NCBI GenBank assembly: GCA_963698035.1
Contig: OY969114.1
Location: 120,001-152,000 of the forward strand
From: Candidatus Saccharimonadota bacterium
GTDB taxonomy: Archaea > Micrarchaeota > Micrarchaeia > Micrarchaeales > Micrarchaeaceae
Reading direction: 5' to 3'
DNA: 32,000 nucleotides
Numbering within the stretch: position 1 is the first letter of the stretch; each line of letters begins with the position of its first letter. This document shows, one piece after another, positions 1 through 13,871 of the stretch. Position numbers and translations under genes: made by a program. Under the pieces are notes generated by a model. That model was given only the letters and a program-made list of their open reading frames with translations, was not told the origin of the DNA and ran no database searches.

Positions 1-537
1 CATGTTGTATCTCTTTCCTGTATCGACCAGCATTCCAGACCTTCCTATGTACATCCCATAGTCTTTGAATCTTCCATCTATCGGCGTGTCTATTATTGTG
101 TGCTTGTTCATCCTCCACTTCTGCGCATTGAGGAGCCTTGTGAAGAATGGTATGGGAGCCCCTTCTGGCAGTGTGCTTTCATCTACGATGCCGGTCGCCA
201 ACCCGACTCCTTTGTGCTTCTTGTGCAGTCCTACGTGGTCTTTGATCCAGTCTTTTGACACATATGCGTCATCATCAGTATGCATGACAATGTCCCCATC
301 TGCTTTCCTGTATATGGTGTTCAGCGCCTCTTCGAAGAGGCCATTATCTTGCTTTATGAGCCTCACGTCCAGACCGCTGTATTCCTTGGCTCTGCCAAGG
401 GTTTCGTTGCACCCGCTCCATGGTTTATAGACAAGCATTATACTGAAATTCTTGTAGGATTGCGACTGCAAGCTATACAGGAGCTTGAATATTGTATTCC
501 TTGTCTTGTATGTAGGTATGGCAACGGTGACGTGCAA
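1..537 (-). CDS. Glycosyltransferase family 2, partial (C-terminus runs off the left edge)
   Basis: Absent from the ORF track because it is truncated. My reverse-strand translation from TTG at 537-535 reads LHVTVAIPTYKTRNTIFKLLYSLQSQSYKNFSIMLVYKP, a typical GT2 N-terminus. In the same frame, ...DGDIVMHTDDDAYVSKDWIK gives a DxD-type motif. The + ORFs 65..430 and 280..555 are antisense shadows of this gene. Confidence 0.75.
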   Translation of the reverse strand, partial: MHVTVAIPTYKTRNTIFKLLYSLQSQSYKNFSIMLVYKPWSGCNETLGRAKEYSGLDVRLIKQDNGLFEEALNTIYRKADGDIVMHTDDDAYVSKDWIKDHVGLHKKHKGVGLATGIVDESTLPEGAPIPFFTRLLNAQKWRMNKHTIIDTPIDGRFKDYGMYIGRSGMLVDTGKRYNM

Positions 538-541
538 ATTA

Positions 542-1717
542 TCACTTATTCTTGACGATTTTCCCATTTATTATACTTACAGCAACATCCCTTCCTTGTG
601 CTGCAAAGACGACATTGCTCACAGCGTTTTCCCTGTCCAGTGGCATTAGCGATGCGCTCTTGCCTACAATTATGATGTCGGCCTTCTTCCCCTTTTCTAT
701 GCTGCCCATGTTTGCCCGCAGGGCTTTCGACGCATTTACTGTAGCCATATCGAGAGCCTCTTGCGCGGTCAGCCCGTTCATCAGCGCTGAGAACTTCATC
801 GTTTGGAACATGTCAAGGCTGTCGTTAGATGCCGCGCTGTCCGTTCCAAAGGTAACGTTGATACCGCTGCCCAGCATTCTCTTAATGTCTGCGGTTCCGC
901 TTCCCAGCTTCGCGTTGCTTATTGCGTTGTTGACTATGGTGGTGCCAGACCTAGCGAGCATGGCCGTCTCTTTCCGGTTCACCCAGACCCCGTGTGCTGC
1001 CACCAAGTCTCTTGACAGGAAACCATTCCTATACATCCATTCTACAGGTCTGAGCGAATAACTTGCCGTATGGTTCGCTACCTCCTGTCTTGTCTCCGCA
1101 AGATGCATGTGAACGATTGTGTTATACCTCTTGGAGAGCGCTTTCGTCTGTCGAATCGTATCTTTGGAGCAGACATAGACCCCTTGGAGGCCGAACGACG
1201 GCATTATCATTTTCTTGTTCCTGTACCTCTTTACGAACGCCTCGGCATTCTTTATCGGAATGCCCTTTTGGGTTGTATACTCCTTGTCGAGAACCACCCA
1301 CGATAGGAATGCCCTCAGTCCGAATCTTGAAACCGTGTCTGCGATCGTGTCCTCGGAGTAGTAGAGGTCGAAGAAGGAGGTTGTGCCCGATTTTAGCATC
1401 TCTCTTGCGGCCAGCCCTGCAGACCTCTTTATCATCTCCTTTGTGTTCTTTCTGTCGAACTCGGAGGTCTTCTCGAGAAACTGTTCGAGATTCATCCCAT
1501 TGCACACGCCTCTCAGCATCGTCATACCTATATGGGTATGCATGTTCACCAGACCCGGCATGACCACAGATCCAACAGCGTCAACCACGACGTCGGACTT
1601 GTTTGACTCTTTTCCAACAGATGAGATGGTGTCTTCTTCTACCAGCACGTTTCCGGTCAGTACTCGGCGCCGTTCGTCTTGGGTTACTATCAGCCCATTC
1701 CTTATCATTATGGTCAT
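542..1717 (-). CDS. Metal-dependent amidohydrolase, MtaD/DadD-like (5'-methylthioadenosine/S-adenosylhomocysteine or deoxyadenosine deaminase family)
   Basis: 391-aa ORF. PGLVNMHTHIGMTMLRG is the HxH metal motif of the chlorohydrolase/ATZ-TRZ family. It also has HLAET, a late FGTDSAASN motif and a GKKADIIIV tail. Confidence 0.8.
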   Translation of the reverse strand: MTIMIRNGLIVTQDERRRVLTGNVLVEEDTISSVGKESNKSDVVVDAVGSVVMPGLVNMHTHIGMTMLRGVCNGMNLEQFLEKTSEFDRKNTKEMIKRSAGLAAREMLKSGTTSFFDLYYSEDTIADTVSRFGLRAFLSWVVLDKEYTTQKGIPIKNAEAFVKRYRNKKMIMPSFGLQGVYVCSKDTIRQTKALSKRYNTIVHMHLAETRQEVANHTASYSLRPVEWMYRNGFLSRDLVAAHGVWVNRKETAMLARSGTTIVNNAISNAKLGSGTADIKRMLGSGINVTFGTDSAASNDSLDMFQTMKFSALMNGLTAQEALDMATVNASKALRANMGSIEKGKKADIIIVGKSASLMPLDRENAVSNVVFAAQGRDVAVSIINGKIVKNK

Positions 1718-1799
1718 TTCGATCTACTATAGTACAATTGCTATTAAAGGCTTATACCATGATTTTTAATGATTTATGTAGAAATAAAAGAGTGCCTTT

Positions 1800-2522
1800 A
1801 TGGTAGAAGTTAGCATAATCGCTCCGACGATGCATGAGGAGCGAGCCCCCGAAATCGCAAAGGAGATATTTAAGACCTTTGGCAGGGATGCAGAGGTCAT
1901 AATAGTAGATAAAAGCGACCTCAGCTACAGGAGGCTCTTCAAAGGAACAGGCGCAAGGGTTAGGGTGCAGAGGTCAAAGGGCTACGAATATGCGATAATG
2001 GAGGGTCTCGCGGTTGCCAGGGGCACCAAGGTGCTGGCTTCCATAGATCCAGATGGGACGTATTCTGTGCAGGACCTGAAGAGGGTGGTCGATGCCGTGA
2101 GAAGAGGAGAGGCAGACTTCGTATCAGGCGATAGGTCTGGATGCTCCTTCGAGGCGATGGGACCATACATAAAGTTCGGCAACTTCCTATTTGCCGCCAC
2201 GTTCGACATACTCTTCCTGCAAAGGCTCAAGGATGTCTTCAGCGGCTCTTTTGCGATGAACAGGGAAGCATACAAGCAGATAAGGCACGTGAAGCCCTAC
2301 TATAGCGGCACCCTCTTCTTCGAGATGGAGATTGCCAAGAGGGGCTTTCTCATGAAGAACGTGCACGTCTCGTACGAGCCGAGAAGAGGCACCAAGTCCA
2401 AGCTGGCCAAGTCTAAGACGGTCTACGCGACGAAGGTCATGGCAAGCATACTAAAGGACCGCCACAAAGAAATCTCCTACCTCCTCTCCAACATGTTCAG
2501 GGGCCGTTTCGGGGAAGGCTAA
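1800..2522 (+). CDS. Small GT2 glycosyltransferase (dolichyl-phosphate sugar synthase-like), paralog a
   Basis: 240 aa. VSIIAPTMHEE...EVIIVDKSD...IDPDGTYSVQDLKRVV...SGDR is the GT2 Rossmann core with a DxD-like DPDG motif. About half of the first 110 residues are identical by eye to ORF 3977..4663. Confidence 0.8.
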   Translation: MVEVSIIAPTMHEERAPEIAKEIFKTFGRDAEVIIVDKSDLSYRRLFKGTGARVRVQRSKGYEYAIMEGLAVARGTKVLASIDPDGTYSVQDLKRVVDAVRRGEADFVSGDRSGCSFEAMGPYIKFGNFLFAATFDILFLQRLKDVFSGSFAMNREAYKQIRHVKPYYSGTLFFEMEIAKRGFLMKNVHVSYEPRRGTKSKLAKSKTVYATKVMASILKDRHKEISYLLSNMFRGRFGEG

Positions 2523-3154
2523 TAGGGGCTCTCCAGCTTCCCGCGCCTTGCCGGACCCAGATACCTGCGCACAAAATTCGCCACTGTCGCTCTTGTATGG
2601 CCGTCATAAGCCTTCAGGTATTCTAGCAATTTCTTTCGCTCTATGAGGTTGAGTATGCCGCTATACTGCTGTATAGGGAGTCTCACCTTATAGAAAAAGA
2701 GGTCGATGAGAGTCTTTTCCGGGTCGGACACCGGGACCCTCATTTTACCGTACTCCCGTATTGAGAAGCCAAAAAAATACGCAGGCCTGGAGTGGTGCAG
2801 CATGATTCTGGCATGCCCGTCCAATACGGATATCCTTGCCCTTTTTACCCTCCTCAGCGTGACCACCTCCGGTATAGGCATCTGGGTCCATGCGTCCATT
2901 ATCGTAAGCGCGGACCTAAGCCCGTAATAGAACGGTTGGAAGGCGAATCCGGCTGTCATGGCGTCCATGCTTGTTGTATATGCGCCCTTTACTATGCCGT
3001 GCAACCTGCCGGTCTTTTTCAGGTATGCGAGCGTCCTTGCAAAGTCATGTTTCTCACTAGTACGACCAAACAGCATCTTTACGTCGCCGTACGTAAACGT
3101 CGGATATCCTGAGAACTTTTTTAATATGTCATCTGCAAGGGTCATCCTATCCAC
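2519..3154 (-). CDS. AbiEi-like wHTH protein (type IV TA antitoxin family), copy a
   Basis: 211 aa. ...LAYLKKTGRLHGIVKGAYT... matches the AbiEi N-terminal wHTH signature (L-x-K-x-G-x-l-x-r-i-x-rG-x-Y). GFAFQPFYYGLRSAL is shared with ORF 5364..5975. The real start is probably ATG at 3145, which forms an ATGA overlap with the stop of the upstream NTase gene. The track start at 3154 is GTG. Confidence 0.7.
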   Translation of the reverse strand: MDRMTLADDILKKFSGYPTFTYGDVKMLFGRTSEKHDFARTLAYLKKTGRLHGIVKGAYTTSMDAMTAGFAFQPFYYGLRSALTIMDAWTQMPIPEVVTLRRVKRARISVLDGHARIMLHHSRPAYFFGFSIREYGKMRVPVSDPEKTLIDLFFYKVRLPIQQYSGILNLIERKKLLEYLKAYDGHTRATVANFVRRYLGPARRGKLESPY

Positions 3155-3816
3155 GACCGTATTGATTCTATCATAAATCCAAATGTGGGGGCAATGCCGG
3201 ATATTATAAGGTTGCCAAGGCCCGGCATGTCGGGAGGCTGATCCTCATCAATACTTTCAAGAAGCTTGCCGAGTCTGGCGGCGGTCGCAGCACTTCTCTC
3301 TTTTATAATGGTAGTTAAATAATAGATGTCGTAGAGATCCTGGGCTTCGGGCTGTTTTATGGAGCTTGGATGCGAGAGCTTATCCGAATATGCGTCTATC
3401 TTTTCATTCAGAAGCTCTATGGGCTTCAGGGCGAGCACGACGCTTTTGCTGCCATCCATCCTTGTGTAATCGGCAGGGCTGCCTTTCTTGTAACCCAGAT
3501 TTATATCCACCTTCATCTTGTCTCTCGCTTGGACAAGGAACTGCATGGTTTTGGTGTCCCTATTGTAGCTGCGTTTTTTTAGGGTGAACTCCCTCTCCTT
3601 GAAGAAGTTGGAAAATTCTTTATTGCATTCCTTTGGAGATTTTGATTTTGCATTGTAATAGAAGTCAATATCTCTTGAGAAGCGATTACCGCCATAGCAT
3701 CTCCAGATGGCGGTGCCTCCGTGGAAGACGAGGTCCTTGTATTTGTTATATAACAGCTCCACCAGCACGTCCTCCCATACCGCCTTGGCCCGCTTGTCTG
3801 CATCGGGTAGCTCCAT
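3142..3816 (-). CDS. AbiEii/AbiGii-family nucleotidyltransferase (DUF1814-type), copy a
   Basis: 224 aa. FHGGTAIWRCYGGNRFSRDIDFY is the pol-beta NTase hG[GS]...DxD motif as seen in AbiEii. The later EKIDAYSDKL...AQDLYDIYYL matches AbiEii motif III (K..A...R..D.yD). Confidence 0.75.
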   Translation of the reverse strand: MELPDADKRAKAVWEDVLVELLYNKYKDLVFHGGTAIWRCYGGNRFSRDIDFYYNAKSKSPKECNKEFSNFFKEREFTLKKRSYNRDTKTMQFLVQARDKMKVDINLGYKKGSPADYTRMDGSKSVVLALKPIELLNEKIDAYSDKLSHPSSIKQPEAQDLYDIYYLTTIIKERSAATAARLGKLLESIDEDQPPDMPGLGNLIISGIAPTFGFMIESIRSWIG

Positions 3817-3976
3817 CTAATCATTTATAAGTGCTTATTATTACATTCTTTGGTAATAATAGGGCATCATATAAATATAAAAATCTTTGCCCTACACACG
3901 CGAATCCAATCAAACTTTTTATAATAGGTCTGTAATATAAAGTTTAGGTCTTATAAACTACAACTACTGTGCTTTC

Positions 3977-4663
3977 ATGGTGAAACTCAGCTTCATAGTG
4001 CCGACAAAGAACGAGCGTACGACTCCAGGCATAGTGCGCGATATCTACAAGACCTTCGGCAGAAACGTGGAAGTGATAGTTGTCGACAAGAGCACCCCCG
4101 AGTACAGGAAGCCGCTCTACAAGACAGGAGCTAAAATAGTGATACAGAAGCATGGCGTATACGAGCACGCTCTTGTCGAGGGCTTTAGGCTCGCGCATGG
4201 AGAGATACTCGCAGCGATAGACCCCGACGGCACGTACTCGGTCAAGGACCTCAAGAAGATAGTCGATTACATCTCGAGGCACAGGGAGTATGCATATGTC
4301 GGCGGCGACAGGTTCGACTGCCCCTCCGAAGCGATGCCCGGTTCGATAAGGTTCGGCAACCGCCTCTTCGGCGTGCTTGCCAGCTTGCTCATGATGCAGA
4401 ATATGCGTGACACCTTCAGCGGCTCTTTCGCGATGTGGACAACCGCCTACAACACCATAAGGCACATGGATGGCTATGTTGCCGGCCCCACAATCTTCCA
4501 GATCGCGCTTGCACGGAAGGGCTTTAAGGTTAAATGCATACCCATATCATACAGGCCCAGGGTAGGCTCCAAGCCCAAGACCACAAACTTCAAGCAGCTC
4601 TTCGCCTTCAAGCTGGTGTGGAACATGTTTTGGGGGAGGTTCAGGCCGCTTGGCCCCTTATAG
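3977..4663 (+). CDS. Small GT2 glycosyltransferase, paralog b
   Basis: 228 aa. LSFIVPTKNE...EVIVVDKST...IDPDGTYSVKDLKKIV...GGDR...FSGSFAM is colinear with ORF 1800..2522. Confidence 0.8.
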   Translation: MVKLSFIVPTKNERTTPGIVRDIYKTFGRNVEVIVVDKSTPEYRKPLYKTGAKIVIQKHGVYEHALVEGFRLAHGEILAAIDPDGTYSVKDLKKIVDYISRHREYAYVGGDRFDCPSEAMPGSIRFGNRLFGVLASLLMMQNMRDTFSGSFAMWTTAYNTIRHMDGYVAGPTIFQIALARKGFKVKCIPISYRPRVGSKPKTTNFKQLFAFKLVWNMFWGRFRPLGPL

Positions 4664-4719
4664 AAGGGTTTTTATATTAAACTACCTAACTTATATTATA
4701 ATATAGGTATGGTAATTTC

Positions 4720-5367
4720 ATGTCTGACCCCATCGAGAGGCTGCTCAACAACGATGCGCAGGTGGCATTGGCAAGGCTCGAAGACGCAGTTGTCAAGGTG
4801 ATATACGAGATAGACTCGGGAGTGGTGATGCATGGAGGCACTGCCATATGGCGGTGCTACGGAGGCTATAGGTTCTCTTCTGACGTTGATATATACCTCA
4901 ACGAGGCCCAAGTAAAAAAATTCAATCTTGAATTGACATGGAAGATCTCGAGATACCAGCTAAAGCACGATCCGCCAGCACATACCGGAAGGAGGATCAA
5001 GGTATTCAATGATAATGCAAAAACGCAAATCGAGGCGATGAAACCGCCGCCTGGGCTCAAATCGGTACCGGCCCTGTACGAAATGGCGAATGGTACAAAA
5101 ATCGCAATCAAAACATTGAGCGTAGACGATTTCATTAAGGAAAAAATGCGCACATACGAAAAAAGATTTTATGCGAGGGATTTCTTTGACGTATACCAGT
5201 TGATCATAAACCATGATGTTGGGCGAGGCACCAAAAAATCAGTTCTCAGATTCATAGAAACGGCATCAAAGCCTAAAGATGAGGATGTATTGAAAGACAT
5301 AGTGTATACCGGGCCTGCTCCAACATTCAATGATATGGTAAGCGCCATCCGCGGTAGATTAAAATGA
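4720..5367 (+). CDS. AbiEii/AbiGii-family nucleotidyltransferase, copy b
   Basis: 215 aa. It has MHGGTAIWRCYGGYRFSSDVDIY and EKMRTYEKRFYARDFFDVYQL. Its C-terminal APTFNDMVSAIR parallels APTFGFMIESIR of copy a. Confidence 0.75.
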   Translation: MSDPIERLLNNDAQVALARLEDAVVKVIYEIDSGVVMHGGTAIWRCYGGYRFSSDVDIYLNEAQVKKFNLELTWKISRYQLKHDPPAHTGRRIKVFNDNAKTQIEAMKPPPGLKSVPALYEMANGTKIAIKTLSVDDFIKEKMRTYEKRFYARDFFDVYQLIINHDVGRGTKKSVLRFIETASKPKDEDVLKDIVYTGPAPTFNDMVSAIRGRLK

Positions 5368-5975
5368 AATATATGGATTTTGTGAGGCAGACATTTAACA
5401 GCGCCGATTTCCCCATATTCAGCATACGCGATCTGAAAATAGGGCTTAGCGAGAGGAAAATAAGCACAAAATACTTATACACCCTAGTGCACGGACTTTT
5501 ACGCAAGAAAGAGATAATACGCATAACGCGCGGGATCTATACATTCCACGACGACGCCTTCGTGGTCGGATTTGCATTCGAGCCGTTTTATTACGGGTTG
5601 GAATGTGCCCTGTCCCTGCGCGACCTCTCAACACAGGGGGCAAATCCAATAGTGATAACCGCAAGAAAGGTCAGGGTGGGAGTGAGGACTTTCAAGAATA
5701 GGAATTATAGGATACGGAAAATTAACGGCAATCTCTTCTTCGGGTACGAGCTTTTAAAATATGGGAAGTTTTGGATACCAGTTTCTGACGTAGAGAAGAC
5801 AGCCATAGACTTGGTTTATTTTGGCTATGGCATAAGGGAGGAGCTGCTCGAGGGCATCCATAAGAATATTGACATAGGAAAACTTAATAGGTATCTTAAA
5901 AAATACGATATAAGATTTAGGAGGAGGGTCTTTGCGGAGTTAAGAATTAAGGAAACCCGAAGTGTATCATTATGA
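5364..5975 (+). CDS. AbiEi-like wHTH protein, copy b
   Basis: 203 aa. It has LLRKKEIIRITRGIYTF and GFAFEPFYYGLECAL. The start overlaps the NTase-b stop as ATGA (5364-5367), and the stop overlaps the GT4 start as ATGA (5972-5975). Confidence 0.7.
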   Translation: MKYMDFVRQTFNSADFPIFSIRDLKIGLSERKISTKYLYTLVHGLLRKKEIIRITRGIYTFHDDAFVVGFAFEPFYYGLECALSLRDLSTQGANPIVITARKVRVGVRTFKNRNYRIRKINGNLFFGYELLKYGKFWIPVSDVEKTAIDLVYFGYGIREELLEGIHKNIDIGKLNRYLKKYDIRFRRRVFAELRIKETRSVSL

Positions 5976-7102
5976 AAATCGCATTCGTATCTGACGCGGC
6001 GTTCCCCTGGCATGTAGGCGGGGTCGAGCAGACAGAGAGGCTAGAGGCTGAGGCGCTAGCAAGGCATAATGAGGTACACTTCTTCTCCTTCAAGTGGAAA
6101 GGAATGAAAGGGGATTTTATTGACAGGAATATACACTACCACTGCTCCCACTACCTTACTGACAAGCAGTTCTACAGACACAAGAGAAGATCCATACGCG
6201 AAGCATTCTACTTCTCGCTCGTCGCGTGGAGGATCTTCTCCGACAGGTTCGATGTTGTGCAGGTGAACGCGTTCCCTTATCTGCATCTGCCCGTGGTAAA
6301 ATTCTACTGCGCGATTTTTGGCTCGAAGCTCATCATGGACGTTGCCGAGGTATGGAGCAGGGACCGTTGGGTAGGTTACCTTGGCCCGTTCTTCGGCAGC
6401 ATCATGTGGCGCTATACAAATTGGACACTCTCTGGGGCGGATGCGTACATAGCGAACCCGGGCAACGCATGCGAGGAGCTTGATGCGCTGGGCGTAAATC
6501 GGTCAAGGATACATTCATTCACGCCCATTCTGGACGATGACGAGATATCGAAGGTGAGAGCACCCCAAAGAAAGGGCATTGTCGTCTATCTGGGCAGACT
6601 GATAAGGGAGAAGAGATTCGACAGGTGGCTCGATGTCCTTAGGGATGCATCCCAGAAAGATAGGAGCATAAAAGGGATTATAGTCGGAGACGGGCCTGAA
6701 AGGGGGTCCATACTGCACACCATATCGGCTCTTGACCTGAAAAGGATAGTAAAGCTGCACAGCTATTACAGGAACAGGAAGGATGCGCACAGGATACTTA
6801 AGGGCGCTTCCCTTTTCCTCAACATGTCAGAGAGGGAGGGCCTGAGCGCGACGACACTGGAGAGCCTGGCGCTGGGTACGCCTGTCGCGCTACCGAGCTA
6901 TTCTCCGATACCTGACATGGTAAAGGAGATGTGCATCGTGGCTGACAAGGACGACCTTCCAGACGTTGTGGTTAAGGTTGCCAGGTCAAGGAGCAAGGGC
7001 TCATTCATAAAAAACAGGAGGAACCTGGAGAACTTCCGCGCCTCGGGGATAATCCCCTTCTACGATAGGCTCTTTAAGAGCCTCAGCAGATGCTCACACT
7101 AA
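5972..7102 (+). CDS. GT4-family (Glycos_transf_1) glycosyltransferase
   Basis: 376 aa. The N-terminus MKIAFVSDAAFPWHVGGVE is typical of the family. The C-terminal SEREGLSATTLESLALGTPV is the E-x7-E retaining-GT motif. Confidence 0.85.
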   Translation: MKIAFVSDAAFPWHVGGVEQTERLEAEALARHNEVHFFSFKWKGMKGDFIDRNIHYHCSHYLTDKQFYRHKRRSIREAFYFSLVAWRIFSDRFDVVQVNAFPYLHLPVVKFYCAIFGSKLIMDVAEVWSRDRWVGYLGPFFGSIMWRYTNWTLSGADAYIANPGNACEELDALGVNRSRIHSFTPILDDDEISKVRAPQRKGIVVYLGRLIREKRFDRWLDVLRDASQKDRSIKGIIVGDGPERGSILHTISALDLKRIVKLHSYYRNRKDAHRILKGASLFLNMSEREGLSATTLESLALGTPVALPSYSPIPDMVKEMCIVADKDDLPDVVVKVARSRSKGSFIKNRRNLENFRASGIIPFYDRLFKSLSRCSH

Positions 7103-7132
7103 CAAAAAAGAAGAAAAAGAAAAAAGAGAAAG
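7101..7132 (-). terminator. Oligo-T (polypyrimidine on the - strand) tract just downstream of the membrane-protein gene; probable archaeal intrinsic terminator
   Basis: The + strand reads aacaaaaaagaagaaaaagaaaaaagagaaag (31 of 32 purines). The - strand therefore reads as T-runs starting 3 nt after the stop at 7135-7137. The tract fills the whole gap between two convergent genes. Confidence 0.45.
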
Positions 7133-7134
7133 CT

Positions 7135-7530
7135 TTACGCCTTCTCTCCCATATACAATCCCGATCCTACCAGGGTCAGGATGAAGCCGAATATGGCGAT
7201 CCACATCGCAGGCGTGCCCGCTGTTAGCACTAACAATGTAGCCGCTGCTATCCAACCCAGCTTTGCCATCATACCGGATACCTTCTTTCCCCAGCCGATG
7301 ATATACGTGAAGCTTACCAGGAATATTGCTATCGAGGCAAGTATCGCCGCAGGGTAGATGAAGGGTAGCCATATGCTAGCGTAGCTTGTGTTCCATACGC
7401 CCAACGCCGAGGAGTATCCCGCGCTAGTGAAAAACGCGGCAGTTAGTAGGAAGAGCAATCCTCCCAGGAACTCCAGGCTGAAGGCAGCGTATGCTAGTCC
7501 CATACCTTTACCTTTTGCCATCTTTGTCAC
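7135..7530 (-). CDS. Small integral membrane protein (about 4 TM helices), function unknown
   Basis: 131 aa with four long hydrophobic stretches (LEFLGGLLFLLTAAFF, IWLPFIYPAAILASIAIFLV, LGWIAAATLLVLTAG, MWIAIFGFILTLVGSGL). I recognise no family motif. Confidence 0.6.
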   Translation of the reverse strand: MTKMAKGKGMGLAYAAFSLEFLGGLLFLLTAAFFTSAGYSSALGVWNTSYASIWLPFIYPAAILASIAIFLVSFTYIIGWGKKVSGMMAKLGWIAAATLLVLTAGTPAMWIAIFGFILTLVGSGLYMGEKA

Positions 7531-7717
7531 CAGTATACAGCTTCAACGTAAAGCTTTTAAACCTATCGCAGGGGGGTTGCTTCCTGACGAATGCCCGGGG
7601 ATGGCGCCCGGCATTTTCCTTTGGCGTGGTCGCATCGGTGCGGGGAGAGCTATCAAAAGTTATTTATTACTTTTGATTCTATATATAATGCCTTGCACTC
7701 TGTAGTAGAGGAACTTA

Positions 7718-7966
7718 TTGTTAAACGGTGAGCCTTTGGTAGCGTCCCCTCTTAGACTAGTGGTAAAGCACTCAATCCTAAGCGAGAGCGAGGCGAAGAA
7801 GGTATCCAAGAGGTTCAAGACACCACTTGAGAAGTTCCCAAGGATACTTGAGAGCGACCCCCAGGCGGTAAAGATTGGCGCCAAGATAGGGCAGCTTATC
7901 GAGATAAGCAGGAGGGATCCCACAGGCGATTACCTGTACTACAGGCTTGTGGCAAAGAACGCGTGA
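7718..7966 (+). CDS. rpoH: DNA-directed RNA polymerase subunit H (Rpo5)
   Basis: LVVKHSILSESEAKKV...KFPRILESDPQAVKIGAKIGQLIEISRRDPTGDYLYYRLV matches the RpoH pattern (vPkH.il.eeE...LP.I...DP.a..lgak.G..i.I.R.s...g....YR.V). TTG start. The TATA-like element ctatatataatg lies at about 7677-7688. Confidence 0.85.
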   Translation: MLNGEPLVASPLRLVVKHSILSESEAKKVSKRFKTPLEKFPRILESDPQAVKIGAKIGQLIEISRRDPTGDYLYYRLVAKNA

Positions 7967-9445
7967 TCTATTGAGCGACACCCATGAATTGCTTGAGTCC
8001 TACCTGAGCAACACCTCGATGGTGCAGCAGCAGATAGACAGCTACAATAGGTTCGTCAGCATAGGCATACGGAGGATTGTCGAGAGCCAGAGCAACATAG
8101 AGCCGGAGGTATCAGACTTCGCGATAAAGCTAAACAGCATACGTGTTGGAACCCCGGTGGTGATAGAGTCCGACAGCTCATCCAGGAGGATAATGCCGAA
8201 CGAGGCGCTTGTGAGGAACCTTACCTACAGCGCACCCATATACCTCACATACACGCCGGTGATCAGCGGAATCGAGAAGACGATAAACACCTCTGAGGTC
8301 TTCATAGGGGAGCTTCCCGTCATGGTCAAGAGCGACCTCTGCTACACCAGGAACATGTCGAAGGAGCAGCTCATAAGCGAGGGGGAGGATCCGGATGACC
8401 CAGGCGGCTATTTCATAATCAAGGGGAGCGAGCGCGTGCTCGTGGGCATCGAGGATCTCGCCCCGAACAGGATAATCTGCACGAAGGAGAAGAAGGGGGT
8501 GGTAAGCAAGGTCTTCTCCACGACGCTGAGCTTCCGAGCGAGGTGCAGCATAACTAGGGATGAATACGGGGTGTACAGCGCGCTCTTCCCGACCGTGTCT
8601 AAGGGCATAGACCTCGTACTGATACTAAGGGCGCTGGGCATGCAGCCCAAGGAGATGCTGGCGGGCGTGGAGGACATAAAGGAGATAGCGAACGACATGC
8701 TGCTCAACATCGACCTCAGCAAGGCCAAGGAGCTGCCCCAGGACGAGTGCATGATGGAGCTCGGGAGGATGTCTGCGCCGAACCAGGCGAAGCCCTACCA
8801 GCAGAAGAGGGCTGAGATGCAGCTCGACACCTACATACTGCCGCACATAGGATCAAAGCCATCGGAGAGGAAGGAGAAGGCGGAATACCTTGTAAGGATG
8901 GCGAAGAGGGCCTCGATGGTGGCATATGGCTACGCAAAACCGGAGGACAAGGACCACTACGCGAACAAGAGGGTGAAGCTCGCAGGCGACCTCATGGAGG
9001 AGCTGCTCAACAACGCGTTCAAGTTTTTCGTAAAGGACATAAAGTACCATGTCGAGAGGACGACGGCAAGGGGCAGGAAGCTAAACGTCAGGACGAACAT
9101 AAACCCAGACGCGCTCACAGACAAGATACTCTACGCGATGGGCACCGGATCGTGGCCAGCGGGCCAGACCGGCGTCTCGCAGGTCCTCGACAGGACCAAC
9201 TTCATCAGCGCAATGGCGCACCTGCGCAGGGTAAAGTCGCCGCTGACAAAGAAGCACCCCCACTTCAAGGCTAGGGACGTCCACGGGACCTATCTCGGCA
9301 AGATCTGCCCGAGCGAGACCCCAGAAGGAACAGAGGTCGGGCTCACCAAGTATCTTGCGATAATGGCAAGATCACAGTTGGCGCGGACCAGGCGATGCTG
9401 GAGCAGAAGATAAAGGAGCTCGGCCTCCTAAAGGGCGAGAAATAA
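7947..9445 (+). CDS. rpoB2: RNA polymerase subunit B'' (N-terminal half of a split Rpo2); a frame change near 9370 disrupts the last ~25 codons
   Basis: ORF 7947..9413 carries QQQIDSYNRFV..., ...GGYFIIKGSERVLV... and ...KICPSETPEGTEVGLTKYLAIMAR. The expected continuation ITVGADQAMLEQKIKELGLLKGEK* is read in another frame and ends at TAA 9443-9445. Confidence 0.8.
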
Positions 9446-9481
9446 GGTGTTATGCTTGGCTCAACAGACCGATAAAGACAA

Positions 9482-11297
9482 ATGTTAGTGTACCTTGACG
9501 GAAGGATGATAGGTGCGGTAAAGAGCGGCGCGGCCTTTGCAAGGGAGATACGGAGGAACAGGAGGGCGGGCGTCATCTCCGGACGAGGTGAACGTCGCAT
9601 TCATAAGGAAGCTGAACGAGGTGCACGTCAACGCGGACAGGGGGCGTGCAAGGAGGCCCTACATAATAGTGGAGCAGGGAAGGAATAAGTTCACCGAGGA
9701 GCTCAAGCAGAAGTTGGTTAACAAGGAGATAGACTTCAACTACCTGCTCAGGAGGGGGATGATAGAGTACCTCGACGCGGAGGAGGAGGAGAACGCGCTG
9801 GTCGCGCTCGAGGAGACGGATATCACCCAAAGACAACCCACCTGGAGGTCGACCCGGCCTCTATTTTCGGGCTCACGGTGAACATAAGCGCATTCCCGGA
9901 ATTCAACACCGTAGGAAGGCACTCGATAGCGCTCAACTTCATCAAGCAGAGCCAGGGGCTCTACGCCACTGAACTTCAACAGCAGGTACGACCCGAGGGC
10001 GTTCCTGCTCTACTACCCGCAGACGCCGATAGTGGACAGCCTCGCCTACAGGGCGCTCGGGATCGAGCAGGCACCCGAGCGGGCAGAACTTCGTGGTTGC
10101 GCTGTCGACATATTACGGATACAACATGAAGGACGCATTAGTGCTCAACAAGGCTGCGGTCGACCGGGGCCTGGGCAGGAGCGTCTTCTACAAGACCTAC
10201 GCTGACGAGGAGAGGAGATACCCCGGAGGGCAGCAGGACCATTTCAGGATACCCCCGCCACAACCGACGGCTATCTGGGCGAGCACGCCTACTCGAAGCT
10301 TAGCGAGGACGGAATAATAGAGAAGGGGATGGAGGTCAAGGAGGGCGACGTGCTCATCGGGAAGGTATCGCCGCCCAGGTTCCTCGAGGAGCAGACGAGC
10401 TTCGGGGTTGGCGAGGAGAAGAGCAGGGACGACTCGATGGCGCTGAGGGCGGGCGAGGAGGGCATAGTAGACAGCGTCATGCTCAGCGAGACCACGGGCG
10501 CGACAAAGATAGTGAAGGTGAGGGTAAGGAGCATAAAGATCCCCGAGAAGGGCGACAAGTTCGCAAGCAGGCACGGGCAGAAGGGAGTGGTCGCGCTTAT
10601 AGTCGAACCAGGAGGACATGCCGTTCACCAAGGACGGGATAGTGCCGGACCTGCTGCTCAACCCGCACAGCCTTCCGAGCAAGGATGACGTTCGGGCCAC
10701 ATGCTCGAGATGCTGGCGGCGAAGGCGGGCTCGCTCGAGGGCACGCACATCGACGGCACCGCCGTTCAGCAAGAGAGGGCAGCGCCCGCATAGACGAGTA
10801 CGGCGCGATGCTCGAGGAGTACGGCTTCGACAAGTTCGGCGACGAGGAGCTCTACGACGGGAGGACCGGGAAGAAGTTCAAGGCCAAGATATTCACAGGA
10901 GTCGTATACTACAACAGGCTGTTGCACATGGTGAGCCTCAAGATGCAGGTCAGGAGCAGGGGACCGGTGCAGATACTCACCCACCAGCCCACAGAGGGCA
11001 AGCCGAGGAAGGGCGGCCTCAGGTTCGGGGAGATGGAACGCGACGCGCTGGTGGGCTACGGGGCGAGCCTGCTGCTGAAGGAGAGGATGCTCGACCAGAG
11101 CGACAAGGCGGAGATCTGGATCTGCAAGAACTGCGGCGACGTCGGCTATTACGATTACATAAAGAACGTGCCGGTCTGCCCGCTCTGCAGGCGGGAACAA
11201 CCTCGAGAGGGTGGAGATAAGCTACGCGTTCAAGCTGCTGCTCGACGAGATAAAGTCGCTGCACATACTGCCAAGGATAAAGCTGAAGAGTGAATGA
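9482..11297 (+). CDS. rpoB1: RNA polymerase subunit B' (C-terminal half of Rpo2), broken by about 10 frame changes in this sequence
   Basis: Conserved blocks are spread over ORFs 9482, 9537, 9878, 10093, 10329, 10618 and 10685. They include [139 protein letters not shown] and CKNCG...CPLC. The true C-terminus [28 protein letters not shown] ends at TGA 11295-11297. Confidence 0.8.
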
Positions 11298-11300
11298 TAC

Positions 11301-13871
11301 ATGCAAGCTGAAAGCATAGATTACATAAAGTTCACGACGATATCGCCAGAGCATGATCAAGAAGATGAGCGTCGCGAAGCTCATCGTCCCAGACACCTAC
11401 AACGAGGACGGCTACCCGATAGACGGCGGGCTGGTGGACCAGCGCCTCGGGGTGATAGACCCGGGGCTGAAGTGCAAGACCTGCGGCGGCAGGGCGAAGA
11501 CCTGCCCGGGCCACTTCGGGCACATCGAGCTGGTGAGGCCGGTCATCCACCCGGAGTTCTCGAAGATAATCTACCTGCTGCTGCAGTCAACGTGCGACAA
11601 GTGCCACAGGATACTGCTGACGACGACGCAGATCGCAGGAGATAAGACCAGCGATCAAGAGCATAGTCGTCGAGGCAGAGGAGCTTGACAGACGAGCGAC
11701 GATCCCGAGCACGTCAAGGACGAGAGGACGGGAAGCCGGAAGGCATGCTCAAGAAGCTAAGAGCGTAAAGAAGTGCCCGCACTGCGGCAGCGCTGCAGAG
11801 GAAGATAAAGCTCGAGAGGCCGACCTTCTTCTACATCGACGAGCAACAAGCTGAAGCCGGACGAGATACGGGACTGGCTCGTCGAAGATAAGCGACGACG
11901 ACCTCAAGCTGCTGGGCATAGACCCGATGCGACCAGGCCGGAATGGCTCATACTAACAACGCTGCTTGTGCCGCCGGTCAACGTGAGGCCCTCCATCACG
12001 CTTGAGATCCGGAGAGAGGAGCGAGGACGACCTGACCCACAAGCTCGTGGACATAATGAGGATAAACCAGAGGCTCGAGCAGGACATAGACGCCGGCGCG
12101 CCGCAGATAATAATAGACGACCTCTGGGAGCTGCTGCAGTACCAGGTCACCACATACTTCAACAACGAGACACCGGGCATACCGTCGGCAAGGCACAGGA
12201 GCGACAGGCCGCTCAAGACGCTGGCCCAGAGGCTGAAGGGCAAGGAGGGCAGGTTCAGGTACAACCTCAGCGGAAAGAGGGTCAACTTCTCCGCAAGGAC
12301 GGTCATAAGCGCTAGACGCGAGCCTCGACCATAAACCAGGTGGGCGTGCCGACGAAAGATGGCCGAGAAGCTTACGATACCGTTCTACGTCGACGCGAGT
12401 GGAACATGGAGCAGGCGAAGGAGCTACCTCGCAGAGGACGGAATACCCGATGGTACTCAACGTCATAACAAAGGACGGAATAAGGAAGAGGGTCACAGAT
12501 GTGAACAGGGAGGAGCTGCTCAAGGCGCTCGTACCCGGATTCATACTCGAGAGGCAGCTCATCGACGGCGACATTGCCCTCTTCAACAGGCAGCCCACGC
12601 TGCACAGGCTGTCGATCATGGCGCACACGGTGAAGGTGCTGCCGGGCAAGACGCTCAGGATGAACACGTCTGTCGCGTGTCGCCGTACAACGCGGACTTC
12701 GACGGGGACGAGATGAACCTGCACGTTCCGCAGTCGACTGGAGGCGCAGGCCGAGGCGAGATACCTGATGCAGCCGAAGGACCAGGTGCTCTCGCCCAGG
12801 GACGGCAAGCCGATAATGTTCATAGAGGAAGACCAGATAGTCGGGCTTTACATGCTTACGAAGGACGGCGCGTTCTTCACCAAGGAAGAGGCATCGATAA
12901 TGCTCGCAGCTGTGGGGATCTACGAGCTGCCGAAGAAGGAGAAGAGCGGGCTCTACAGCGGCAAGGCGATATTCTCGATGATACTGCCTAAAGACTTCAA
13001 CTACATATCAACATCGCTGAACAAGAAGCTGGTGATAAAGGACGGGCAGCTGATCGAGGGCACAATCGGGGAGAAGAACGTTGGCGGCGGAGGGGGGGCA
13101 ATGATAATGGAGATATTCGTGCAGTACGGCGCGGATGAATGCGAGAGGTTCCTCAAGAACATATCCTCGATATCGTTGAGGGCGGTGTACAGGGTGGGGA
13201 TGACGATAAGCTTCAAGGATTACTACGAGACCGAGGCGATGATAAAGGAGCGCGAGCGGATAATCAAGGAGGCCGACGACAAGTCAGAGGCGCTGGTGAT
13301 GACTTACAGGGAGGGGAAGCTGGAGGCGCTGCCGGGATACACAAGAAGGGAGACGCTCGAGCTCGAGCTCAGGGTACAGCTGGACATAGCGAGGGACATA
13401 GCCGCAAAGTTCCTGGAGAAGAGCTTCGGCCCTGAGAACAACGCACGCCTCATGGCAATGGTAAAGGCGAAGGGCAGCATACTAAACTTCGTGCAGACAA
13501 GCATGCTGCTGGGCCAGCAGGCTGTGCGCGGAAGGAGACCTTCAAGAGGATACAATGGTCGTGTACTCCCCTACTTCAGGAGGAACGACAAGAGGCCCGA
13601 GGCTAGGGGATTCGTCGGGTCGTGCTTCCTTGAGGGGCTCACCCCGACAGGGTTCTACATGCACGCTATGGGGGCGAGGGACTCTGCAATGACAAAGTCG
13701 CTCATCACAGCTGTAAGCGGCTACATGCAGAGGAGGCTGATCAACGCGATGCAGGACTTCTACGTGGCAGAGGACCTGAGCGTCAAGGATGCGAGCGGCG
13801 CGCTGATAGAGACGCTCTACGGCGGCGACGGAGTGGATCCGACAAAGGAGCTCGAGGCAATGAAAAAGTAA
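11301..13871 (+). CDS. rpoA1: RNA polymerase subunit A' (Rpo1N); the N-terminal ~1.45 kb is broken by at least 14 frame changes and the C-terminal 367 codons are intact
   Basis: Conserved blocks lie in different frames: [146 protein letters not shown] and [18 protein letters not shown] (catalytic NADFDGD). A clean ORF 12768..13871 follows. Confidence 0.8.

Follow-up and report, generated by a model that had tools for sequence, protein, structure and literature searches.

The locus at positions 1800–7102 of a 32,000-nt stretch of OY969114.1 (positions 120,001–152,000, hereafter the window, to which all coordinates below refer unless a contig is named) combines a small operon of glycosyltransferase genes with two pairs of AbiE-type toxin–antitoxin (TA) genes. 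Each pair encodes a nucleotidyltransferase (NTase) of the AbiEii family and a winged helix-turn-helix (wHTH) protein resembling AbiEi, and each adjoins a small family-2 glycosyltransferase (GT2), an arrangement that an initial annotation of this DNA had read as a three-gene module duplicated as a unit. We consider it probable (about 0.85) that the locus instead holds two different AbiE cassettes, separately acquired and self-contained, which were inserted at junctions of an older GT2a–GT2b–GT4 operon; cassette a would have entered in inverted orientation between GT2a and GT2b, and cassette b, co-oriented, between GT2b and GT4.

The description on which the duplication proposal was built is largely sound. 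All six open reading frames (ORFs) were found in our ORF check where the initial annotation had put them, with coordinates and strands agreeing (Table 1), apart from a small correction to HTH-a, for which the ATG at 3145 (208 aa, in an ATGA overlap with the NTase-a stop) is most likely the start in preference to the GTG at 3154, because gene calls on contigs L001 and L092 place it there. The members of the two copies are paralogous, as had been claimed: BLASTP aligns GT2a with GT2b at 45% identity over 238 aa (E 3e-70), NTase-a with NTase-b at 31% over 221 aa (E 4e-24) and HTH-a with HTH-b at 35% over 178 aa (E 6e-29). All three similarities are real and far above chance, and the motifs quoted for the NTases (HGGTAIWRCYGG.RFS.D.D.Y and APTF) and for the HTH proteins (GFAF.PFYYGL) are present. 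The glycosyltransferase-cluster setting holds as well, with GT4 directly downstream and, on Logan contig L001, which is 100% identical to window 1–9057, a GT2 gene, four GT1-type genes, a DegT aminotransferase and an epimerase upstream of the amidohydrolase.

What sets the glycosyltransferase genes apart from the AbiE pairs is their distribution among relatives, for which identity to the window proteins serves as a rough guide to the relatedness of orthologous loci. In the closest of these, L010 (RpoB'' 96%, RpoH 86%), GT2a and GT2b lie 10 nt apart and are followed by NTase-b, HTH-b, an MNT–HEPN pair, GT4, a membrane gene and rpoH; pair b is present (NTase-b 72%, HTH-b 62%) and pair a is absent. 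L092 (RpoB'' partial, RpoH 71%) has the layout of the window, with both pair a (80% / 78%) and pair b (66% / 67%, the former being NTase-b). Both pairs are absent from L094/L095 (RpoB'' 90%, RpoH 67%), in which the amidohydrolase, GT2a (66%), GT2b (78%), GT4 (61%), the membrane gene, rpoH, rpoB and rpoA follow one another, and from L096 (RpoB'' 84%, RpoH 57%), with GT2a, GT4, the membrane gene and rpoH. They are also absent from two further sets, namely L006–L009, where GT2b (74%), a 95-aa ORF, GT4 (56%) and GT2a (68%) are rearranged beside an IS605-type OrfB, and L002–L005, where a lone GT2a-like gene (76%) stands in another context. The conserved core is GT2a–GT2b–GT4 beside rpoH, to whose gene junctions AbiE pairs have been added in some lineages and not in others, TA-free orthologous loci being among those compared.

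The junctions themselves point the same way. Only ~10–12 nt separate the GT2a stop from the GT2b start in L010 and L094, and it is through the presence of the inverted cassette a that the two genes are ~1.45 kb apart in the window. In the TA-free L094, the GTG start of GT4 overlaps the GT2b stop (GTGA), and in the window the ATGA overlap of the AbiEi-b stop with the GT4 start stands in place of this ancestral one. GT2a orthologues at 64–80% identity occur in AbiE-free loci, GT2b orthologues at 74–81% in L006, L010, L092 and L094, and GT4 orthologues at 53–79% in every syntenic locus, TA-free ones included. The operon beside rpoH–rpoB thus appears to be pre-existing and vertically inherited, and GT2a and GT2b appear to be old, lineage-specific tandem paralogues that were duplicated before the split of the AbiE-lacking lineages.

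Further TA genes have come to rest at the same place. In L010, the MNT (NTP_transf_2) and HEPN genes lie between the two copies (L010:7630-7655 and L010:8736-8761, 96% identical) of a direct repeat of 26 nt, ATGAAAATCGCATTCGTATCGG[G/A]CGC, which corresponds to the 5' end of GT4, and the HTH-b/GT4 junction persists there as a 26-nt remnant. Because it is flanked by this repeat of the GT4 5' end, the MNT–HEPN pair appears to be a later insertion, the repeat representing a target duplication or a recombination scar. No recombinase gene was seen near the insertion. Directly upstream of GT2a, L010 also carries a third AbiEii-family gene (L010:4004-4618, minus strand, 204 aa, PF08843 6.6e-14) adjoined by a DUF2283 gene (L010:3632-3883, minus strand); at E 1e-5, tblastn found it similar to neither NTase-a nor NTase-b, and no AbiEi-like partner was detected beside it. 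With AbiE a, AbiE b, MNT–HEPN and the third AbiEii accumulating patchily at one spot, the locus is a hotspot of TA turnover.

Gene trees (neighbour-joining, Poisson distances, 100 bootstrap replicates) give the two AbiE pairs separate histories. The NTase search returned 854 clusters at E <= 1e-5, and the best 120 of these divide by identity, 89 being nearer to NTase-a (41–80%, as against 25–33% to NTase-b) and 31 nearer to NTase-b (43–79%, as against 28–35% to NTase-a). In the NTase tree, clade A (bootstrap 100), which unites the a copies of the window and L092 with those of 15 other genomes, is separate from clade B (bootstrap 91), and the two window NTases are sisters in 0/100 bootstraps; the same is true of the two window HTH proteins (0/100), the HTH tree having an A + A2 grouping with bootstrap 100. 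GT2a orthologues (bootstrap 99) and GT2b orthologues (100) form groups of their own that join each other, relative to ~300-aa relatives, with a bootstrap of 72. Members of the two AbiE clades occur in Micrarchaeota, Thermoplasmata, Nanoarchaeota, Woesearchaeota, Thaumarchaeota and others, and on one complete chromosome, OY969902.1 (853 kb), pairs of both clades are found ~148 kb apart (L022, L075). NTase-a and NTase-b thus belong to two different, widespread archaeal AbiE clades, and the incongruence of the gene trees shows that duplication did not act on the triad as a unit: the window AbiE copies are never sisters, and their presence is independent of the GT2 duplication.

Nor do AbiE pairs of this kind keep company with GT2 genes elsewhere. 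We surveyed 80 loci (L012–L091) drawn from 146 relatives in GTDB species-representative genomes, seeking GT2 neighbours with a hidden Markov model (HMM) of the GT2 family and scanning the immediate neighbours (n=143) with Pfam. In 79/80 loci the NTase gene is immediately followed, on its own strand, by an AbiEi-like ORF that usually overlaps it, and a GT2 of the GT2a/b family is adjacent in 0/80 and within ±8 kb in 3/80. The 143 neighbours matched 160 Pfam families, with Glycos_transf_2 outside the top 25; glycan-type neighbours amounted to 3 sugar epimerases and 2 Glyco_transf_4, a count not obviously above the genomes' own glycan share, as judged without a formal background rate. A general AbiE–GT2 linkage, which the initial annotation had raised, is rejected on the strength of this survey, and the GT2 adjacency in the window is a chance local feature of a single narrow lineage. 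The duplication proposal had been staked on recurrent adjacency and congruent trees; what we found is adjacency that does not recur in the 80 loci together with incongruence among all three families. Public data hold about 850 NTase and 1,870 HTH cluster representatives, of which gene order was examined in 80 genomes.

The commonest immediate neighbours in the survey were AAA_14 (9/143) and DUF4143 (6/143) ATPases, with GmrSD_N and NTP_transf_2 found twice each; these neighbours hint at small defence or variable regions in reduced genomes.

Both NTases belong to the AbiEii/DUF1814 family, as had been proposed. PF08843 (AbiEii) is matched with 67.1 bits by NTase-a and 48.3 bits by NTase-b (Pfam gathering score 22.5), and multiple PADLOC AbiEii models also match (best E 7.8e-16 for NTase-a and 1e-13 for NTase-b), searches that keep these 215–224 aa proteins inside the family. 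A profile of the NTase family finds JHP933 (5e-7), AbiGII (6e-4) and MenT4 (9e-4) among Protein Data Bank (PDB) sequences. The catalytic motif, HGGTAIWRCYGGNRFSRDIDF in NTase-a and HGGTAIWRCYGGYRFSSDVDI in NTase-b, is of the Pol-beta type, hGG-x14-DxD, with S47 two residues ahead of D49 (R-F-S-R-D-I-D). In an alignment of 47 family members, H32, G33, G34, T35, R45, S47, D51, E138, K139, D160 and D163 are invariant, and D49 is kept in >=90%, both window copies included. S47 aligns with the phospho-acceptor T65 of Streptococcus agalactiae AbiEii and with S78 of MenT3, and more generally the motif positions match T65/D67/D69 of the former and R76/S78 of the latter. An AlphaFold2 model of NTase-a (predicted local distance difference test, pLDDT, 94.1; predicted template-modelling score, pTM, 0.90) has 4OK0 and 4O8S (JHP933) and 6Y56 (MenT4) as its top Foldseek matches (E 2e-7 to 1e-6, TM 0.56–0.60).

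The HTH proteins are likewise AbiEi-like, as suggested before. PADLOC AbiEi profiles match both HTH-a (4.1e-14, residues 9–155) and HTH-b (2.8e-18, residues 10–183). Pfam AbiEi_4 gives 23.6 bits for HTH-b (cutoff 25) and no match for HTH-a, and is matched by 27/42 family members; some homologues are named 'AbiEi family antitoxin domain-containing protein' at NCBI, and annotation pipelines already give relatives of both genes the names AbiEi and AbiEii. Searches of PDB sequences with the HTH family, using single-sequence and profile HMM methods, returned nothing meaningful, and AbiEi and Rv2827c were recovered by structure comparison only: an AlphaFold2 model of HTH-a (pLDDT 94.5) matches the S. 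agalactiae AbiEi structure 6Y8Q (E 1.3e-6 over 207 columns) and 1ZEL, Rv2827c (TMq 0.65). Through 6Y8Q and 1ZEL, the model fits a two-domain build of an N-terminal wHTH and a C-terminal antitoxicity domain.

Both pairs are laid out as compact bicistronic cassettes in which the NTase and HTH genes overlap by 4 nt. The NTase gene comes first in each (3816–2519 on the minus strand, 4720–5975 on the plus strand) as it does in 79/80 of the related loci, an order that we did not find discussed in the AbiE literature we looked into, although our search was not exhaustive. The inverted repeat ahead of cassette a, TATTATTAC-N8-GTAATAATA, has a single occurrence in the window, where chance would give 0, and is conserved in L092; clade-A loci of other genomes carry a repeat of this type as TTATTACA-N-TGTAATAA. 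Ahead of cassette b, the palindrome TTATATTATAATATAG ends 14 nt before the NTase-b ATG and is also unique in the window (0 expected by chance); its place is taken in L010 and L092 by a perfect 20-bp palindrome, AGTTATATTATAATATAACT, and in L075 and L091 by close variants. A further AbiE subclade has the palindrome TGATAACAATATTGTTATCA, and others AAACTTATAG-N-TATAAGTTT. In nearly all of the loci covered (75 nt upstream; window, L010, L092 and L012–L091), a class-specific palindrome of this sort separates a TATA-like box from the start codon of the NTase gene. The operator-like sequence thus appears to co-vary with the class of antitoxin, as would be expected for autoregulated cassettes, and the subclade palindromes form a natural set of co-varying predicted repressor/operator pairs. 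We set aside a scan for sigma-70 promoters, a bacterial model applied to an archaeal host. The region 3817–3976 must presumably hold promoters for both NTase-a (minus strand) and GT2b (plus strand).

Table 1. Genes and predicted regulatory features at the locus, in window coordinates
Feature	Position	Strand	Description
Amidohydrolase	542–1717		precedes GT2a
GT2a	1800–2522	+	small family-2 glycosyltransferase, 240 aa; opens the conserved GT2a–GT2b–GT4 core operon; outside any TA unit
AbiEi-a (HTH-a)	2519–3145	-	two-domain wHTH, predicted antitoxin/autorepressor; cassette a gene 2; maximal ORF to GTG 3154
AbiEii-a (NTase-a)	3142–3816	-	DUF1814 nucleotidyltransferase, predicted toxin; cassette a gene 1
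A/T-rich divergent intergenic region	3817–3976	.	160 nt, probably arisen by cassette a insertion
Operator-like inverted repeat, cassette a	3836–3861	.	TATTATTAC-N8-GTAATAATA; 19 nt 5' of NTase-a ATG; flanked by TATA-like boxes
GT2b	3977–4663	+	paralogous small GT2, 228 aa; core operon gene 2
Predicted promoter/operator region, cassette b	4669–4706	+	T-rich TATA-like box TTTTTATATT (4669–4678) and palindrome TTATATTATAATATAG (4691–4706)
AbiEii-b (NTase-b)	4720–5367	+	DUF1814 nucleotidyltransferase, predicted toxin; cassette b gene 1
AbiEi-b (HTH-b)	5364–5975	+	wHTH, predicted antitoxin/autorepressor; 4-nt ATGA overlaps with NTase-b stop and with GT4 start
GT4 glycosyltransferase	5972–7102	+	core operon gene 3; start codon overlaps AbiEi-b stop codon

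Each cassette follows one plan, a TATA-like box, a predicted palindromic operator, a short AbiEii gene and an AbiEi gene overlapping it by 4 nt, and we propose that it would work much as its bacterial counterparts do. By homology with AbiE of S. agalactiae and MenAT of Mycobacterium tuberculosis, the NTase would add nucleotides to tRNA 3' ends and so halt translation, a growth-inhibiting activity that the cognate antitoxin is predicted to neutralise. The C-terminal domain of AbiEi would bind the NTase and set off its auto-phosphorylation on S47, silencing the toxin, while the wHTH domain would bind the palindrome and repress the promoter of its own cassette. If antitoxin supply failed, because a virus had infected the cell or the locus had been lost, the toxin would be freed. 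The earlier suggestion of addiction or defence modules within a glycan island is compatible with the data.

Several observations weigh against separate insertion of two such cassettes, or against the activities assigned to them. The window shares pair a with the more distant L092, and yet the closest relative, L010, lacks it; the history of pair a would have to include either its clean removal from L010 or its passage between lineages by recombination. Pair a is, for comparison, 78–80% identical between the window and L092, above the flanking GT2a (71%), GT4 (63%) and RpoH (71%). No integrase, terminal repeats or viral copies were found that would explain insertion: the window contains no integrase or transposase; around cassettes a and b it contains no convincing terminal repeats or target duplications, such repeats as were found being coding homology between the paralogues; and no NTase relatives were found in IMG/VR, on which ground viral carriage of the cassettes was rejected. 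The gene order is the reverse of that in canonical AbiE and MenAT operons, and the regulatory logic could differ with it. Finally, what is proposed for toxicity, target and regulation is carried over from bacterial homologues with <20% identity in structural alignment and TM 0.53–0.65.

Other explanations of the locus have to be set against separate insertion. Duplication of a whole GT2 + AbiEii + AbiEi module, with divergence and later inversion of one TA pair, would account for the paralogy of all three members and for the GT2–pair–GT2–pair order common to the window and L092. It is nevertheless ruled out by synteny and trees, and we would give it almost no credence: GT2a and GT2b are direct neighbours without TA genes in L094/L095 and with pair b alone in L010; the window NTases and HTH proteins are nearer to proteins of dozens of other genomes (37–80%) than to their window paralogues (31–35%), with which they never group as sisters; and GT2a/GT2b are confined to a narrow lineage (26 matches), whereas the AbiE clades extend across Micrarchaeota, Thermoplasmata, Nanoarchaeota and further groups. 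It seems only slightly less improbable that AbiE was recruited to glycosylation, as the initial annotation had also entertained, with the wHTH controlling glycosyltransferase transcription and the NTase acting on a sugar-nucleotide or lipid carrier. The overlap of the AbiEi-b stop with the GT4 start makes co-transcription of GT4 with cassette b, and translational coupling between them, probable; cassette a would have pushed GT2b onto a new promoter in the divergent region; and no fewer than three lineages, those of the window, L010 and L092, have kept the arrangement. However, sister lineages run the same glycosyltransferase genes without AbiE, and in L010 the MNT–HEPN insertion between AbiEi-b and GT4 breaks the coupling. 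The palindromes are found 5' of NTase genes only, are class-specific and move with the cassettes into unrelated contexts; every catalytic and phospho-acceptor residue of the toxin type is kept in the NTases; and glycosyltransferases are not enriched around the 80 other pairs. We see no support in these data for a role of AbiE in controlling glycosylation.

Two further possibilities concern what the cassettes do once in place, and each is unlikely, if less so than recruitment. They may be kept less for antiviral defence than for stabilising the adjacent glycan cluster by post-segregational killing. In bacteria, a plasmid that is otherwise unstable is stabilised by AbiE (Dy et al. 2014), the locus has several TA types (AbiE a, AbiE b, MNT–HEPN and, in L010, the third AbiEii beside DUF2283), and the upstream glycan cluster is variable, differing in gene content between L001 and L094. 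But the GT2a–GT2b–GT4 core is equally retained in the TA-free lineages (L094, L006, L096), and patchy TA genes among close relatives look more like selfish turnover than stabilisation. It is about as doubtful that the short NTase-first AbiE clade, widespread in DPANN-type and other archaea, is a regulatory variant whose cassettes enter precisely between genes and bring the host genes downstream under their control, which would leave GT4 translationally coupled to the antitoxin and behind an AbiEi-repressed promoter; the evidence for capture is the ATGA overlap of AbiEi-b with GT4. If this were so, expression of a surface-glycan glycosyltransferase would follow the state of the TA pair, its derepression when a virus attacks would alter the surface glycan recognised by viruses or host cells, and there would be a real, though secondary, AbiE–glycosylation link in this lineage.

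Of the glycosyltransferases themselves less can be said than the initial annotation had proposed. GT2a and GT2b carry the PF00535 fold (35.8 and 44.2 bits) and an IDPDG (DxD) motif, and they do resemble AglJ and dolichyl-phosphate hexose transferases. Their scores are far under the cutoffs of the NCBIfam equivalogs TIGR04182 (AglJ; 85.8 for GT2a and 71.1 for GT2b, cutoff 325) and NF041391 (79.8 and 74.4, cutoff 375), and by these measures only an assignment to the general GT2 family (PF00535) is supported. GT2a has only 26 database homologue clusters (E <= 1e-10), from archaeal metagenome-assembled genomes (MAGs) labelled Marsarchaeota or Micrarchaeaceae; homologues as a whole bear the labels Micrarchaeota, Micrarchaeaceae and Marsarchaeota. 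GT4 matches Glycos_transf_1 (63.9 bits) and Glyco_transf_4.

GT4 and its orthologues in L006, L010, L092, L094 and L096 also pass PF20706, 'Family 4 glycosyltransferase in conflict systems'. We rejected GT4 as a conflict-system enzyme, as its PF20706 score (33.1 bits, cutoff 26) is far exceeded there by those of the generic GT1/GT4 families, and the same match in TA-free orthologues makes it probably a cross-match.

Some features of the surroundings deserve mention in their own right. Between GT4 and rpoH lies a gene for a small predicted membrane protein (7135–7530, minus strand, 131 aa) that matches no Pfam family; its position is kept in those syntenic loci in which rpoH adjoins GT4, with 47–75% identity in L010, L092, L094 and L096. 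In the L006 lineage, the IS605 OrfB/TnpB-like gene (L006:9259-10452, 397 aa), two genes downstream of the rearranged GT2b–GT4–GT2a, may be tied to the rearrangement of the operon. Further downstream in the window, rpoB' (611 aa and intact on L001) and rpoA are broken into many short ORFs. Across 9058–12267, and probably to about 15200, the window differs from L001 by 175 mismatches, which are skewed toward G/C in the window, and 54 gap positions, mostly 1-nt indels. Because both genes are essential, the breakage is almost certainly noise of assembly or consensus, for example from a strain mixture, and pseudogenisation is very unlikely.

The corrected annotation replaces an apparent composite module with what we read as two independent insertions of a known and abundant TA/defence system, and it keeps a false 'AbiE–glycosylation' linkage from spreading. 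In return, it draws attention to a large archaeal AbiE clade that is consistently toxin-gene-first, with palindromes co-varying by antitoxin class, and to a 6-kb locus beside the RNA polymerase operon at which at least four TA cassettes come and go among close small-genome archaea. The 26-nt duplication in L010 may offer a clue to the movement of such cassettes without a recognisable recombinase.

Known AbiE systems, those of S. agalactiae and of Lactococcus lactis pNP40, are classed as type IV TA or abortive-infection systems, with type VII recently proposed, and AbiE has already been recognised in DPANN and acidophilic archaeal MAGs; pairs of COG5340 and DUF1814 are abundant in archaeal and bacterial defence islands (Makarova et al.). 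The window cassettes share with AbiE a DUF1814/PF08843 NTase with hG[GS]-x~15-DhD and a Ser/Thr that stands two positions ahead of the first of these Asp residues, a two-domain wHTH partner (as judged from the likeness of the HTH-a model to 6Y8Q), a bicistronic arrangement with a 4-nt overlap, and an inverted repeat in the predicted promoter region. In canonical AbiE, a pair of COG5340 and COG2253 genes, the regulator gene stands ahead of the NTase gene (Dy et al. 2014); the window cassettes and 79/80 clade loci are NTase-first, which is a difference of operon layout and not of protein family. Their NTases are also short (215–224 aa, compared with ~290 residues in MenT4 6Y56 and AbiGII 9HLO), their promoter context is archaeal and TATA-like, and they have a single palindrome that differs by class. 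The bacterial structures share only 16–19% identity with the window proteins. Among functionally characterised systems with solved structures, the closest relatives are MenAT4 (Rv2826c/Rv2827c) and MenAT3 (Rv1045/Rv1044) of M. tuberculosis: MenT4 (6Y56) matches the NTase-a model with E 1e-6 and TMq 0.60, Rv2827c (1ZEL) matches the HTH-a model with TMq 0.65, and the R76-x-S78-K79 of MenT3 has its counterpart in the R-x-S-[KR] ahead of the catalytic Asp pair in the window NTases. Unlike the window pairs, however, the MenAT systems are bacterial, have the antitoxin gene first and encode larger proteins. The best profile and structural match is JHP933 of Helicobacter pylori (4O8S, 4OK0), a DUF1814 protein of similar size (227–232 residues). 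GT2a and GT2b resemble archaeal dolichyl-phosphate sugar synthases, and the AglJ/AglD-type GT2 enzymes of agl N-glycosylation clusters, in their PF00535 domain, in IDPDG and in clustering with GT4/GT1, DegT and epimerase genes, but they are shorter than AglJ, their match spanning 1–203 of the 293-position profile with scores far under the equivalog cutoffs. As in defence and TA islands, several unrelated TA modules build up and turn over at one chromosomal spot; here, unlike in those, the hotspot lies inside a small conserved biosynthetic operon beside RNA polymerase genes and not in a large island.

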